From a virus (lineage: Duplodnaviria > Heunggongvirae > Uroviricota > Caudoviricetes): a DNA stretch of 47,016 bases. Positions 7,801 through 19,800 of the stretch are shown in pieces; position 1 is the stretch's first letter, and each line of letters starts with the position of its first letter. The position numbers were made by a program. The stretch lies in IMG/VR virus record IMGVR_UViG_2713897054_000007. One strand, given 5' to 3'.

Positions 7801-10800
7801 TGAATTTATGAATGAAGTTAAAGACGCCTGCCTTAAAAAGCAGGCGTTTTGTTTTGAGGCACCTGATGGCTTTCTGGTGCTGCGTTCTGTGCTCAGTGCT
7901 GATGGTATCCCTTATGTTCTGGTGTTGCTGGGCGTGTGTACGGGGAGTAACAGCGTTGAGCGTTATCTGCCGGAGGTGAAGACATTAACCCGTCTGGCTG
8001 GCGGACGTTGGGCTGAATTTCATACGGCAAGGCGGGGATTTATCCGGCTGGGAAAACGTCTGGGCTTTGAGCGAATGCCGGATGATGAGGATGGCTTCAT
8101 GGTGTTCAGGATAGCGGTCTGACTGCCACAGTTTTCATCATCGTGTTTAAACCAACATTGCAATTCACATTCTGACCCTGCTCCGGCAGGGTTTTTTTAT
8201 TATCCAGGGGGGCCATAATGGGCGGAAAAAAAGGCGGTGGTGATACCAAAGTAAAACCAACAGCAGCGCAAATAGCACAGGAAGAAGTGGCCTGGAAAGG
8301 GTGGCAGGATTATCAAAAAATCCTCCGCCCGGCTGAAGATAACTTCATGGAAAAGGTCGATGACCTGAACAGTGAGCAGCAGTACGACAATATTGCTGGC
8401 ACCACAAATCTGGGGTATCAGAAACAGTTTGGCGAAGCACGGAAGGAACTGGCGGGTAATCTTGCTCAGTCCGGTGTTGACCCGTCCAGTGGTCGCTTTA
8501 ACGCGGTAATGAATGCGAACCAGAGTGATCAGGTAACCGGGCAGATTGACACAACCACACGGGGGCAGGTATCGCAGGCAGATAAGTATGTTGCCGGGCT
8601 ACAGGATGTTGCAGCTCTCGGTTCAGGTCAGAAGGCGGATGCGTTACAGAGTTTTAACTCGCTGGCAGACAGCAGTCTGGCAAAAGCTAAATCGGACGCA
8701 CAGGCTGCGTTTACGAAACAGCAGGGGCGAGCCTCTCTTGTTGGCGCTGGTTTGGGTGCGGTAGGTGCATATGCGATGCATAAGGCTGGTGGTAGCGGAG
8801 GAAGTGGCGGTGCTAAAACACCGGGCACCGGCGCTAATGCCATTCAGCATCAGGCTCAGAACTGGAGACTGTGATTATGGAGTACGGTAAATACGAAACA
8901 CTTGCGAGATACGGTTATACCGGAGCTGCCCGTCCACAGGGTGACTGGCAGACGTCAGCAGCGCTGACACGCCAACAATACGACGACTGGCGAACCAGAT
9001 ATTTGCCCCGCGTGGCAAGGCTGGCTGACCTTGGCGAGAACAACAGCCTGATGAATGCACAGCTTGCCCGGGTGGGCGGCCTTGCCACTTCCAGTCTCCG
9101 TACAGCGCAGATGGCGCAGGATAACCAGATGGCGAGATACGGGGTAAGCCGCCCGGATAATCCCGACAGTAATACGCTGGGGTTACGTAATGCCCTGGCA
9201 ATTGCTGGCGCGAAAAATGGTATCCGTGAAGCCGAACAGGATCGCCAGATGAACATACTGACGGGGGCTTCTGCACCGGCAAGACAGAAACTGAGTGTTG
9301 GCGGACAACTGGTGGCAGCGTAAGGAGGAAATATGGGGTACGGCTTACTGGATATTGCGAATCAGTCACGGCGTGAGGCATTACAGGGAATAAGTGACGC
9401 AGACCGACGACGTGAAGAAATTGAGGCTGCGAACAAACAGATGGCGGCGCAACAGAAAGCGCAGAACAAGCAGAATATCGGTACGGGCATTGGTACGGGG
9501 GCGGCTATTGGCGCATCCGTTGGTGGTCCTGTTGGTGCTGTTGCTGGAGCAGTAATTGGCGGCATTGCTGGTTCTTTGTTTTAAGGAGTGGTGAATGAGC
9601 GGATTTGCACAGGGGTTACTTGCCGGATTCAGCACGGTTGACCAGGCAATGACCCGTCGTAAGGAGCTTGGTCTGCGTGAAGCACAGCTTGCCCGGCAAC
9701 AGAAAAATAACGAGCGCGATTTTGAGTTTGCGCAGTCTCAGTTTGAACATAATAAAAACGTTGATCAGCGGAACTTTGATTACAGAGCCAAAGTTGACGA
9801 CCGTAATTATGCACTGAAGGAAAGGGAGTTTAACGCTAACCAGAATTACCGGAATGCGTCGCTGGGTATGGAGCAGCAGCGACTCCGGATGCAGAAATAC
9901 AACCAGCGACGGCTTGAGTATAACGATATGCTGGCGCGCGATCAGCCTGTGATGGCGGCGCTTGGAAAGGCTGTGGATGCTGGCGATCGGGATGCAGCAA
10001 TGCGTCTTTACGGCCAGTTGTCAGAGGGTAATCCGCTGAGGCTGATGGCGAATGATGGCTATGTAGCGAAAGCGGGTCAGGCCGTGAACAACCTGCAAAA
10101 AATCTTTGATGACAAGCCAGACAGGGCTATCGCTTCACTTAATACGCCGGAGAATCTTGATGTCCTTTCCGGGGTGTTTGGCCCGGAACTGCAACAGCGT
10201 ATTGGCATGCCCGATTCAACCGGGAAAAAGACGATAAAAGAGGCCAGGATTGGCAGTATAGTACCGGCACAGCAGGAAGGGTACATACTTATCGGCCTTG
10301 ATCTCACATACAGTGATGGCTCTACAGCACATAAACCTGTAACAGAATACGGCAGTGCGCACCCTGATGATCAAACCGTGCTGGCGATACCCGTTGATAA
10401 GGCTATCGCTCAGGTCAGGGATCGCAGCAAATTTGCAGAGATATCGAAAAATTATGGTTATTTTATGCCGAAGCAGCAGGGACTTTCTCTGAAAGAGCTT
10501 CAGAAGGGGGCCAGCAACGTCGCGGCGGACGCGATCAAGAATGGCGGTAATGCACAGGCTGCGGTGGATGAATATTATGCTGCGACTGGTTCACAACCGC
10601 ATCAACAGAAAATTCAGCAACAAAAACTTCAGCAACAGGTTATCAACTGGGCGGGAGATGATCCTGATAAGCTGTCATTTGCCAGAAATGTAGCGGCCCG
10701 TCAGCCTGAAATGCTGGAGCCTCAGAATCAGAAATTGCTGGAGAACGGGTATGCGAATTTTCTCCGTATTCAAAAGGCCAGGGGGGAACAGGCCAGAGAT

Positions 10801-16800: not shown

Positions 16801-19800
16801 GCGGACTACAAAATTGCGCAGGCCGATCTGGATGAGTACCTCTACGCCCGTCACGCGCCGGAACGTAACGCGCATATCGCGAAAATCAACCCGAAAATGC
16901 CGGACGGCGGTTCGGGGATGACCAACGCGGAGGCGGCGGAAATCATGCAGCGTGTACGTAACAGCGGCAAACAGGCACAGTATGACCGTCTGGCAGGGAT
17001 TGTTGACGATATGCTGGCCCGTCGCCGTGAGCTTATCCGTGAGGCAGGACTGGAAGAGAGCGGCGTGGTGGATGCCTGGCAGAAAGCCTACCGTTACTAC
17101 GTTCCCCTGAAAGGGCAGGATGTTGACGGTGTGGTGTCACTGCCACGTACAGGCAAGGGATTCACCATCGGCGGGCGTGAAAGTAAGCAGGCCATGGGGC
17201 GCGCATCCCGCGCACAGTCTCCTTCCACTCAGGCGATACAGGATTTGAGCGAATCACTGATCCGCAATCGCAAAAATGAAGTGGGTAACGCCTTCCTGAA
17301 ACTGGTACAGGATAATCCCGACAAGGATTACTGGCAGGTATTCACCGATGACAGACCGGATACCATGCGGACGATTGCAGAGCGCAAGGACCAGGAAACT
17401 GGTGAAACCATTCGCGAAGTTGTCGAACGCCCTGTACCGATGGCAATGATGGCAGACCGGTACTTCACCACCAAAAAGAACGGCAAAACGTACTACATCA
17501 AACTCCATGATCCGCGCCTGATGCGTGCGATGAAGAATATGGGACCGGAAACCAGTAACGCCGTAATCCGCACGCTGGGGAAAGTTAACCGCTTCCTGGC
17601 AACGGTGAACACGTCGTATAACCCGGAATTCCTGGTCAGTAACTTCATCCGTGACGTACAGACGGCGGTGATGAACCTGAAGGCGGAGCAGGGAAGGAGC
17701 GACGGCAAACTGAAAGGGCTGGATAACTTATCCGCACTGGCTGTGGTGAAAGACAGTCGGTCTGCCATGTCTGCCGTATACGCCAGTCTGCGTGGTAAAA
17801 CCCTCACGGGCAACGGTGCGCAGTGGCAGAAGGTGTGGAAAGAGTTTGTTGAGGACGGAGGTAAAACCGGCTGGTTTAACATGGGTGACCTTGAAGGCCA
17901 GCAGAAGGAAATGGATCGCCTTGTATCGCTGGCGAAGGGAGGATGGAAAGGCCAGAGTATCGGTGCATGGAATTCGTTCCTTAACCTTGTCGAGGATGCC
18001 AACGGGGCGGTTGAAAACGCTCTGCGTCTTTCTGCCTATAAACACGCCCGTGATGCCGGTTTGTCACGCCAGCAGGCGGCGTCTCTTGCCAAAAACATGA
18101 CGGTGAACTTTAACCGTCGTGGTGAGCAGGGAGCGCTGATGAACTCGCTGTACATGTTCGCCAACGCCAGCATTCAGGGGACCGCAAACCTGGTGAGAAC
18201 GCTCGGACATCTTAATGGCGACGGGCCGTTACTGGAGCGCCTTCGCTGGAAGAATCTCAATGTACCGCAGAAAATCGCGCTTGCAGCTGTGGGAGCGGGT
18301 TATCTGCTTGGCTCGCTTAACCGCAGTGTTGCGGGGGAGGATGATGACGGGGTTAACTGGTATGACAAGGTGCCGTCTCATGTGAAAGAGCGTAACCTCG
18401 TCATTATGAAATCGGTGTTCGGGGGCAAGGCCGGAGAGTACTGGAGTATTCCTCTGCCTTACGGGTACAACGTTTTCTTCCTGCTCGGGCATACCGCTGA
18501 AGGTGTGGCGGCGGGTGACCTGACGGCGTCCCGTGCTGCCGGTAATGTTGTTGGTGGTGTGCTTGGTGCATTCAGCCCGATTGGCAGTGAGACGTCGGAA
18601 ACACTGTCCGGGGCATTGCTGAAAAATGCAGCGCCGACCATTCTGCGTCCGTTTGCGAACCTTGCCATGAATGAAAACTTCATGGGGGCGCAGATTTACC
18701 AGGAGAACATGCCGTTTGGTACGCCAAAACCTGACAGCCAGCTGGGAAGACGTTCAACGCCAGAAGCGTACAAGGCGTTTGCATCCTGGCTGAATGCGTT
18801 CTCAGGTGGCAGCCAGTACCGTTCAGGCGCGGTGGATATCACACCGGAATCGCTGAAATACTGGGTGGACTATATCTCTGGTGGTACAGGGCGCTTCATT
18901 TCCAAAACCACGGATGCGGCGGTGAAATCGCTGAACGGTATTGATATACCGGAACAGCAGGTGCCTTTCCTGGGGAAAATTTCAGGTGAGGTGATGCCGT
19001 ATGCTGACCAGCAGAAGATGTACGACCGGATGACAGAGGTTGCGCAGTATCACGCAGAGCTGAAGAGTCTGACCGGCGCAGAAAGAACGGCGTTCATTGA
19101 CGAGAACAACGGAAAATTGTCGATGAACGGGCTTATGCAGGATACCCGGAAGAGACTGAAGGATTTGCGTAAACAGCGTGATGCCATTTACGCCGACAGT
19201 ACTCTCAGTCTGGCGCAACAGTCGGCGATGGTGAAATCGGTAGAGCGGGATATGAAAATTGCCGTGGATCGGTTTAACCGCGAGTACAACAAAAAAGTGG
19301 GAGTGGATTAACAGAAATGGCCCCGTACGGAAGTGCGGGGCTAATGTGATTGGGGAGGGTGAGGATACCTGACACATCAGAGGTGGCGAGGGATTCCTCC
19401 CTTGCAGAGGTCTTTCTTCGTTATCAGTGCCGTCACAATGACGGTAATACAGAGATGAGCAGGGTGATTAACATCGCCTTTTGCTGCTTTCATTGCATTT
19501 CTCCCGCGATAGCTCAGGCGTATTTGTCAATATGCAGAAATATTGATGAACGAATGACGGTAAATACCCTACCCAGAAAATTAACGTAAATTCACATCGT
19601 AAACTTGCGTTAATTATCTGAAATATATACTTAAATCCCCTTAAATCTTTGGGGCGCTATTGGGGCAAAGTGTGGTTGTTTGGGGCATATTTGGGGCAAA
19701 AAAGAACGTATAAAGAACGGTGTAAAATCGATTTCTTTATGGTCAAAATGAGGTCTAACATATTGAAAAGTATATGCTCTTGGACGATCTTCGGTAATTC

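Follow-up and report, generated by a model that had tools for sequence, protein, structure and literature searches.

Five genes beside attP of a 933W/phi24B-type Shiga toxin phage probably encode internal virion proteins, one of them a giant with effector-like domains

The viral DNA record IMGVR_UViG_2713897054_000007 (Caudoviricetes; 47,016 nucleotides, referred to here as the window) carries at 8218-19311 a block of five genes, encoding proteins of 218, 148, 83, 421 and 2,793 amino acids (aa), the last being a giant. We propose, with a probability of roughly 0.6, that this block encodes internal proteins of the ejection or 'pilot' type, together with injected effector domains, of a short-tailed Shiga toxin (Stx) phage of the 933W/phi24B type. 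It is highly likely that the block products are internal virion proteins required for infectivity at the entry stage, and the odds are about even on the details of a conduit combined with effector delivery.

The locus is already known, with genetics, proteomics and domain annotation of this gene family in the literature. The additions made here are copy estimates, an anatomy of two conserved ends around a cargo, a second HE(x)xxH domain, a C-terminal module without a relative among solved structures, and synteny with Vibrio phages and Ralstonia phage GP4.

Results

In nucleotide comparison, positions 8000-19827 of the window were 100% identical to Shigella phage Ss-VASD (Sepvirinae), and over 200 Stx-converting phages of the 933W/phi24B/Sp5 type matched at about 97% identity. 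Judged by this comparison, the window phage is a short-tailed Stx podovirus of that type, with Shigella sonnei as the host in the case of Ss-VASD. The five genes have orthologues in the same order, at about 97% DNA identity, in Sp5 (ORF76 to ORF80, which are ECs1238 to ECs1242 when mapped to the Sakai annotation) and in phi24B (gp51, gp50, a 'bacteriocin homologue', gp48 and gp47), and the giant shares 96% protein identity with gp47. As these orthologues are near-identical, the genetics of Sp5 and the proteomics of phi24B can be transferred directly. The window phage differs from both in a patch of the giant at residues 1805-1862 (by 28-42%) and in a much shorter interval between the giant gene and attP.

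The structure of phi24B by cryo-electron microscopy (cryo-EM) and its virion proteome were reported in a preprint (bioRxiv April 2026, 10.64898/2026.04.10.717836), in which gp47 was described as abundant, carrying LPD5, LPD1, LPD38 and MuF-C, and absent from the map, with the proposal that it is an ejection protein packaged in the capsid. Emptied particles had lost the diffuse density seen in the lumen of the adaptor. We re-read its supplementary proteome table, so that the virion evidence used here comes from the phi24B homologues and not from Ss-VASD itself. All five block products were present in purified virions, and none is found in the ordered capsid or tail density. With 10,962 peptide-spectrum matches (PSMs), gp47 was second only to the major capsid protein (17,998), followed by gp48 (421 aa; 1,634), gp51 (218 aa; 523), gp50 (148 aa; 129) and the glycine-zipper frame, which is 86 aa long in phi24B (13). 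Virion proteomics had been named in an earlier note on this DNA as a check on its suggestion that these are virion-internal or ejected proteins. The suggestion is partly borne out by the presence of the products in phi24B virions, their absence from the map and the essentiality seen in Sp5, with ejection itself being what we infer.

Copy numbers were calculated from in-solution PSMs per residue, normalised to 12 portal copies, and came to about 23 per virion for the giant, 37 for the 421-aa, 32 for the 218-aa, 48 for the 148-aa and 6 for the glycine-zipper protein, values good only to within about 2-5-fold. The controls gave 6.2 for the nozzle (true value 6), 10.7 for adaptor-1 (12) and 22 for the lateral fibre (18), and the range of error is illustrated by adaptor-2, at 2.5 instead of 12, and by the capsid protein, at 352 where our own number is 535 for a T=9 shell in which the portal takes one vertex. 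Peptides of the phi24B sequence sampled from residue 133 to residue 2673 of gp47 gave 39-95 PSMs each, and this even coverage means that the whole chain is present with no large part trimmed. In the gel, 62% of the gp47 PSMs came from the four slices higher than that of the portal (80 kDa), most of all from the uppermost one, which fits with gp47 being mostly uncleaved inside the virion.

In the preprint, gp48 ('transcription factor?') and the 'bacteriocin homologue' were dismissed as contaminants on annotation alone (10.64898/2026.04.10.717836). Against this, gp48 is very likely a genuine internal virion protein, because its PSMs peak where a protein of its size should run in the gel and because Sp5 cannot do without the orthologue. 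Spectral counts, synteny and Sp5 essentiality indicate that both the 421-aa and the glycine-zipper proteins are true internal virion proteins.

The genes of Sp5 with no assigned function were deleted by Mondal et al. in 2016 (PMC5155283), and ORF80 (ECs1242, 2,793 aa) and ORF79 (ECs1241) were among the nine found to be essential. Deletion of either gave no plaques and no lysogens on K-12 and could be complemented in trans, and the mutants had normal DNase-protected DNA and normal head morphology. Infectivity was markedly reduced by deletion of ORF76, and ORF77 and ORF78 were not among the essential genes.

The giant matches phrog_616 across its full length, and its domains are listed in Table 1. 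Domain parsing, another check named in the earlier note, gave four Pfam domains (LPD5, LPD1, MuF_C and LPD38), all above their gathering scores, together with domains modelled by AlphaFold2. The earlier statement that the giant has long regions of no recognisable family had therefore overlooked these four, and it holds for the rest: in the unassigned stretches (residues 1-470, 471-1050, 1441-1760, 1838-2480 and 2682-2793) only a weak glycine zipper and chance-level matches were found in Pfam at E<=10, and the linker had no match at that threshold. The N-terminal domain closes with a glycine-zipper run at residues 405-425 (12142-12204). The giant of about 2,790 aa with a HEWFH motif was described correctly, and the motif is shared by homologues as HEW(F/W)HxLDNYF, with the H, E and H present in 53-54 of about 55 sequences. 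The NCBIfam model CLCA_X extends over residues 1182-1437 (E 6e-44, below its cut-off) and joins the HEWFH segment to LPD1. The HEIIHH motif of the second His-Glu domain, which the first reading had missed, is also conserved among homologues (H in 31/35, E in 32/36 and H in 28/30) and reads HExxxH(x)G in diverged members.

In the AlphaFold2 model of residues 1040-1879 the domains are well formed (mean predicted local distance difference test score, pLDDT, 78), and the predicted template modelling score is low due to the linkers; Foldseek alone returned nothing significant for this central model. By its predicted fold MuF_C is probably RNase-toxin-like; it is not the 'metallopeptidase' that it is called in the preprint. 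The peptidase candidates of the giant resemble regulatory or cytosolic zincins more than the known families of peptidoglycan hydrolases. The C-terminal 914 aa gave a confident predicted model that had no fold match among solved structures. The giants of four Stx phages are about 97% identical except at residues 1805-1862, where identity falls to 58-72%; this variable patch could be a product of recombination or of diversifying selection.

Among the small proteins, the 218-aa protein matches phrog_611 and, weakly, a 'virion structural protein'. MGG(K)GGG is conserved at its N-terminus, and a segment towards the C-terminus is glycine-rich and mildly hydrophobic. Its homologues all open with a glycine run (MGGKKGGGD in the window at 8218-8240, MGGKGGGDAP in GP4, and MGGGDAPE and MGGGGGDNE in others), which could be a site of processing, modification or interaction. 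The 83-aa protein, described earlier as a glycine-zipper membrane protein, matches Pfam Gly-zipper_YMGG (E 9e-6) and contains nine zipper motif matches against 2.2 expected, a number reached in 0 of 500 shuffles. It has one hydrophobic 19-mer (residues 57-75), and its name 'bacteriocin' is probably a misnomer derived from the glycine zipper. In the 421-aa protein, a GxxxGxxxG peptide at the N-terminus, a helical stretch rich in charge and a conserved core at about residues 180-290 can be distinguished; in a family of 71 representatives G7 and G11 are almost invariant, and no Pfam or PDB relative of the family was found.

For the C-terminal module of the giant, 203 homologues were detected, with 32-58% identity in diverse metagenomes. 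Isolated phages carrying it include the Stx phages, about 100 Vibrio phages, the Ralstonia GP4-like and the Burkholderia Bcep22-like phages, with a partial form in some Bacillus podoviruses. Its DNA was found in 426 of 5,426 complete E. coli genomes, where PGAP names the product 'LPD38 domain-containing protein'. A word-indexed homologue search with the N-terminal 470 aa of the giant returned only enterobacterial relatives. The domains upstream of the C-terminal module vary between homologues and include an ADP-ribosyltransferase (PF18760), methyltransferases, PF18823, MuF_C and the LPD5-metallopeptidase-LPD1 unit, and the giant of Vibrio phage D79 has a methyltransferase-like region. The LPD5-zincin-LPD1 unit also recurs on its own, as proteins of 470-500 aa, and within polyvalent proteins of other kinds. 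The second HE domain recurs after the metallopeptidase-LPD1 pair and directly 5' of the C-terminal module in other giants, including that of D79. The catalytic-type motifs are conserved far outside the Stx phages. Compared by sequence, the giant appears as two conserved ends with an exchangeable cargo in the middle, accompanied by a fixed set of small partners.

These partners are seen in Vibrio phages D79 and 1F273_PE002, where genes for proteins of 133, 218, 148, 83 and 421 aa precede the giant gene, collinear and with pairwise similarity. The Vibrio homologues of the 148-aa protein were found at E 3e-17 and 2e-4; the 218-aa protein has homologues in Vibrio phages and GP4, and the 83-aa protein in Vibrio phages. 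In GP4 gene order is partly conserved, as far as sequence comparison goes. The GP4 giant (10050-19724 of the GP4 record; 3,224 aa) starts with an SLT lytic transglycosylase domain (E 4.5e-10), and the 277-aa GP4 virion protein starts with MGGKGGGD like the 218-aa protein and ends in a glycine zipper like the 83-aa protein, so the three small proteins appear to have been fused into one.

The 133-aa open reading frame (ORF) upstream of the block keeps company with the module in D79 and 1F273_PE002 (with E values of 7e-5 and 2e-10 from searches of small databases), and the conserved unit may thus consist of six genes instead of five. Its product is absent from the virion protein list of phi24B. 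By ECs numbering it is ORF75 of Sp5, which is not among the essential genes. At its position GP4 has a gene for an acyl-CoA N-acyltransferase. A role for the 133-aa protein as a GNAT acyltransferase modifying the 218-aa N-terminus was considered and is unsupported, as no Pfam match was found in its family and hhalign against the GP4 protein gave a probability of 0.2.

The ORF map (Table 1) agrees with the earlier description of a five-gene cluster, all on the same strand, and of a hairpin with a T-run before the giant gene. For the 148-aa gene the RefSeq ATG is at 8877, and a longer frame from 8871 would give 150 aa. The frame of the giant is 10891-19311 at its longest, with an ATG at 10891 inside the hairpin; the RefSeq start is the ATG at 10930, with GGAG ahead of it at 10921-10924, and gives 2,793 aa.

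Table 1. Features in and around the five-gene block, in window coordinates
Feature	Position	Strand	Remarks
133-aa ORF	7721-8122	+	phrog_610; no Pfam match
Terminator-like hairpin and run of seven T	8174-8200 (stem-loop 8174-8193, 8 pairs)	+	directly 5' of the cluster
218-aa ORF	8218-8874	+	internal virion protein; homologue of Sp5 ORF76 and phi24B gp51
148-aa ORF	8877-9323	+	internal virion protein; homologue of Sp5 ORF77 and phi24B gp50; phrog_596
83-aa glycine-zipper membrane-type protein	9333-9584	+	homologue of Sp5 ORF78; RefSeq name 'bacteriocin'
421-aa ORF	9595-10860	+	homologue of Sp5 ORF79 and phi24B gp48
Intrinsic-terminator-like hairpin and run of seven T	10893-10919	+	between the 421-aa gene and the giant gene
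Giant 2,793-aa ORF, about 307 kDa	10930-19311	+	homologue of Sp5 ORF80/ECs1242 and phi24B gp47; RefSeq 'LPD5 domain-containing protein'
N-terminal conserved domain, about residues 60-440	11107-12249	+	27-29% identity to the N-termini of two Vibrio giants; phrog_37568
Linker, about residues 441-1050	12250-14079	+	rich in E, Q, P and charge; low complexity; about 600 aa
LPD5, residues 1051-1200	14080-14529	+	PF18799 E 1e-44; alpha+beta fold, pLDDT about 85-95
Zincin-like metallopeptidase core with HEWFH	14530-15009	+	HEWFH at residues 1284-1288 (14779-14793)
LPD1, residues 1361-1440	15010-15249	+	PF18796 E 1e-23
Second His-Glu...His domain, residues 1470-1675 (about 200 aa)	15337-15954	+	HEIIHH at residues 1551-1556 (15580-15597); no Pfam family
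MuF_C (PBECR), residues 1750-1837	16177-16440	+	Pfam E 2e-17; predicted RelE/BrnT-like RNase-toxin fold
Variable patch, residues 1805-1862	16342-16515	+	overlaps the C-terminal end of MuF_C
Conserved C-terminal module, about 914 aa	16567-19308	+	mostly helical; contains LPD38
LPD38, residues 2476-2681	18355-18972	+	Pfam E 2e-48
hok/gef-type gene	19377-19493	-	RefSeq 'Hok/Gef family protein'; between the giant gene and attP
Integrase gene	19849-21183	-	adjoins the terminal repeat

Terminator-like sites are no more numerous in the region than chance predicts (13 against 12.2 expected), so that only the strength and the placement of two hairpins stand out. These two, each with a run of seven T, flank the four small genes. 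The stem-loop at 10893-10912 has seven pairs, six of them G-C (GCCCGGC, loop cattgt, GCCGGGT), and the one at 8174-8193 was overlooked in the first reading, as was the published status of the locus. Both hairpins should be read through in a late operon under Q antitermination, and they may insulate the block from the lysogen-expressed lom/bor transcription upstream. Another hairpin, rich in G+C, lies directly 3' of the stop codon of the giant gene at 19320-19342.

The earlier placing of the cluster just before attP was roughly right, as the giant gene stops about 440 bp before the terminal repeat of the phage record (19751-19827 of the window), and it needs the amendment that the hok/gef-type gene lies between. 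No RNA family, including any Sok/Hok-type RNA around the hok-like gene, was found by Rfam at the gathering score in 7500-21500. Four close copies of TTGGGGC(A/G) are located within 19650-19705 and a fifth at 19889-19898 by the end of the integrase gene, in an AT-rich stretch by the terminal repeat and attP, and these repeats may be arm-type binding sites of the integrase. In older records, such as that of the Stx1-converting phage, dozens of small ORFs are annotated within or antisense to the giant gene (11172-18683, both strands). These are probably spurious, because such frames have only 1-2 PSMs each in the phi24B proteome, which is the level of noise.

Discussion

We propose that the block would be transcribed late, within a long Q-antiterminated transcript that reads through both hairpins, and that its products would be loaded into the T=9 head in tens of copies each. 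After release of the tail needle they would exit through the portal-tail channel ahead of or with the DNA. The glycine-zipper elements could then enter the host envelope and build or prime a conduit for the DNA; they comprise the 83-aa protein, one element at the N-terminus of the 421-aa and another in the C-terminal part of the 218-aa protein, and residues 405-425 of the giant. The N-terminal domain and the 914-aa C-terminal module of the giant would act with them, the conduit being the essential function. The middle of the giant (LPD5, zincin and LPD1, the second HE(x)xxH domain and MuF_C) would be an exchangeable cargo delivered to the cell. The polyvalent proteins were defined by Iyer et al. 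in 2017 (PMC5512222), who predicted MuF-C to be a PBECR RNase and proposed that the metallopeptidase cuts these proteins into functional units. Following that proposal, the zincin domain or domains may cut the polyprotein into effectors that act early on host RNA or proteins, for takeover or counter-defence. The SLT domain of the GP4 giant is a classic accessory of ejection proteins and was for this reason counted in favour of ejection.

Several points weigh against this proposal. Release, membrane insertion, a trans-envelope channel, self-processing and enzymatic activity are all predicted only, and the C-terminal module is called a channel former by analogy, with no relative among solved folds. 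The giant has no strongly hydrophobic 19-mer (Kyte-Doolittle of at least 1.4), and unlike the GP4 giant it has no peptidoglycan hydrolase domain detectable by Pfam. An injected RNase toxin fits awkwardly with a temperate lifestyle. The copy numbers carry the wide margin given above, and the proteome with its interpretation comes from a single preprint without peer review, for which the sample had been in storage for six months. In Sp5, particles without ORF79 or ORF80 showed no binding of the anti-tail-fibre antibody, and the authors assigned both genes to 'tail formation' (PMC5155283); the ejection model can explain this lost signal only indirectly.

This antibody result, in particles that had packaged DNA and normal heads, is one basis for a different explanation, in which the giant and the 421-aa protein are factors of tail assembly or head completion (an internal plug, a portal core or a chaperone) with no role after adsorption, their enzyme domains being relics. 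The tail of intact phi24B is tilted, and its 'internal tail contents' were suggested to be a core (10.64898/2026.04.10.717836), which could agree with such a role. However, the tail of phi24B as modelled, with portal, two adaptor rings, nozzle, fibres and needle, is complete without either protein, and an ordered tail part made of some 23 copies of a 307-kDa chain could not have gone unseen. The conservation of catalytic-type motifs well beyond the Stx phages also argues against relics, and the ATPase argument of 2016, based on an AAA+ domain (COG1483), was not reproduced by Pfam or NCBIfam. We regard this explanation as unlikely.

Less likely again is that the giant is a purely accessory anti-defence cargo in the manner of P1 DarB/DarA, with entry served by other proteins. 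The domains that Pfam assigns to polyvalent proteins, the annotation of relatives in GP4 and Bcep22-like phages as DarB-like, a PHROG match to 'DarB-like antirestriction' (residues 2351-2681, E 5e-27) and the variable patch in the RNase-like domain speak for it. The PHROG match, however, is confined to the LPD38 region, neither similarity to P1 DarB nor a methylase or helicase domain was detected in the giant, and the phi24B virion list shows no other evident candidates for ejection proteins. The Sp5 homologue, moreover, was essential for plaques and lysogens on K-12 and was complemented in trans. The idea of a polyvalent anti-defence protein in the sense of DarB, raised in the earlier note, is therefore kept as regards the polyvalent domains and given up as regards DarB.

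That the giant is a MuF-type polymorphic toxin, whose RNase-like domain kills competitors and whose immunity gene lies nearby, is very improbable: such toxins are documented in temperate phages, and MuF_C has a predicted RelE/BrnT-like fold with local variability at its C-terminal end, but the defining N-terminal Phage_Mu_F was not detected by Pfam, the toxin-like domain is internal, no same-strand immunity-like ORF follows (the next gene being of hok/gef type on the other strand), and essentiality and a high virion copy number point to the phage's own infection.

Returning to the ejection proposal, its boldest form is that about 20 copies per virion of a self-processing 307-kDa polyprotein are injected, that the C-terminal module is a new kind of trans-envelope DNA-conduit protein, and that the zincin frees a RelE/BrnT-like RNase and other enzymes which reprogramme or disarm the host. 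We consider this form doubtful as a whole. If true, one protein would be both the entry machine and the vehicle for effector delivery, with its cargo swapped across Stx, Vibrio, Ralstonia and Burkholderia phages.

Short-tailed Stx phages are vehicles for the spread of Shiga toxin genes in E. coli and Shigella, and the block holds two of the nine 'unknown' essential genes of Sp5, which bears on how the envelope is crossed after binding to BamA. If the giant both serves as conduit and carries effectors, it would offer a point of attack against the transmission of Stx phages and a natural model for protein delivery through a podovirus tail. The lack of the SLT domain of GP4 in the Stx giant bears on how Stx phages pass the peptidoglycan. 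The existence and location of the proteins are settled, and it is their mechanism that is proposed here.

Compared with known systems, P1 DarB (2,255 aa) is likewise very large and packaged in the head, and it is injected and acts in the host. It combines a methyltransferase with a helicase, both of which are missing from the Stx giant: the best BLASTP E value against DarB was 0.64, and no methylase or helicase family was found in Pfam or NCBIfam. DarB is also dispensable, as dar mutants are viable on non-restricting hosts. Homology to P1 DdrB was considered and rejected, the similarity being limited to a short stretch around HExxH (E 0.28), and no meaningful match was found in the PADLOC library of defence and anti-defence systems. 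The virion RNA polymerase gp50 of N4 (about 3,500 aa) is packaged in a T=9 head and injected through a short tail, as a single enzyme in few copies. The Stx giant is also a giant protein of a T=9 podovirus, but with no polymerase domain in Pfam.

The internal proteins gp14, gp15 and gp16 of phage T7 and gp7, gp20 and gp16 of P22 are likewise encoded by adjacent genes, have graded sizes, are present in about 10-30 copies in the head, and serve infectivity but not packaging. For the P22 proteins, 12, 12 and 30 copies have been reported. What was found for the homologues of the block fits this type, as they occur in virions outside the ordered shell and tail, and ORF79 and ORF80 are needed for infectivity and not for head assembly or packaging. 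T7 gp16 carries a lytic transglycosylase, as does the GP4 giant. No sequence or fold similarity to these T7 and P22 proteins was detected, the Stx giant is 2-4 times larger and has enzyme-like cargo, and a loss of tail-fibre signal as reported for the Sp5 mutants is not known as a phenotype of the P22 mutants.

Like the polyvalent proteins (PMC5512222), the Stx giant combines several LPD and effector domains, hence at least two distinct ones, with a zincin metallopeptidase hub, MuF-C/PBECR, the phage-only LPD38 and a neighbourhood of virion genes, and packaging was seen for the 96%-identical phi24B protein. That class is a computational one, and both essentiality and a carrier module of about 900 aa are outside its definition.

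The closest parallels beyond the Stx phages are GP4, the closest structural relative of phi24B, and the Bcep22-like podoviruses. The latter have homology to 933W in portal, capsid and head closure, and phi24B shares its portal, capsid and nozzle architecture with both. A 4,515-aa 'DarB-like' virion protein follows virion-associated proteins of 196 and 510 aa in Bcep22-like phages. This giant (gp69 in JC1) and that of GP4 have in common with the Stx giant the LPD38-containing module, which is about 900 aa long (at 27% identity; E 1e-52 to 1e-66). Their genes are also found at the end of the virion module, behind those for proteins of about 200-280 aa and about 510 aa, and the JC1 proteins were virion-associated by mass spectrometry. 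It is in the cargo that they differ, with SLT and LPD3 in GP4 and LPD5-zincin-LPD1, the second HE domain and MuF_C in the Stx giant.

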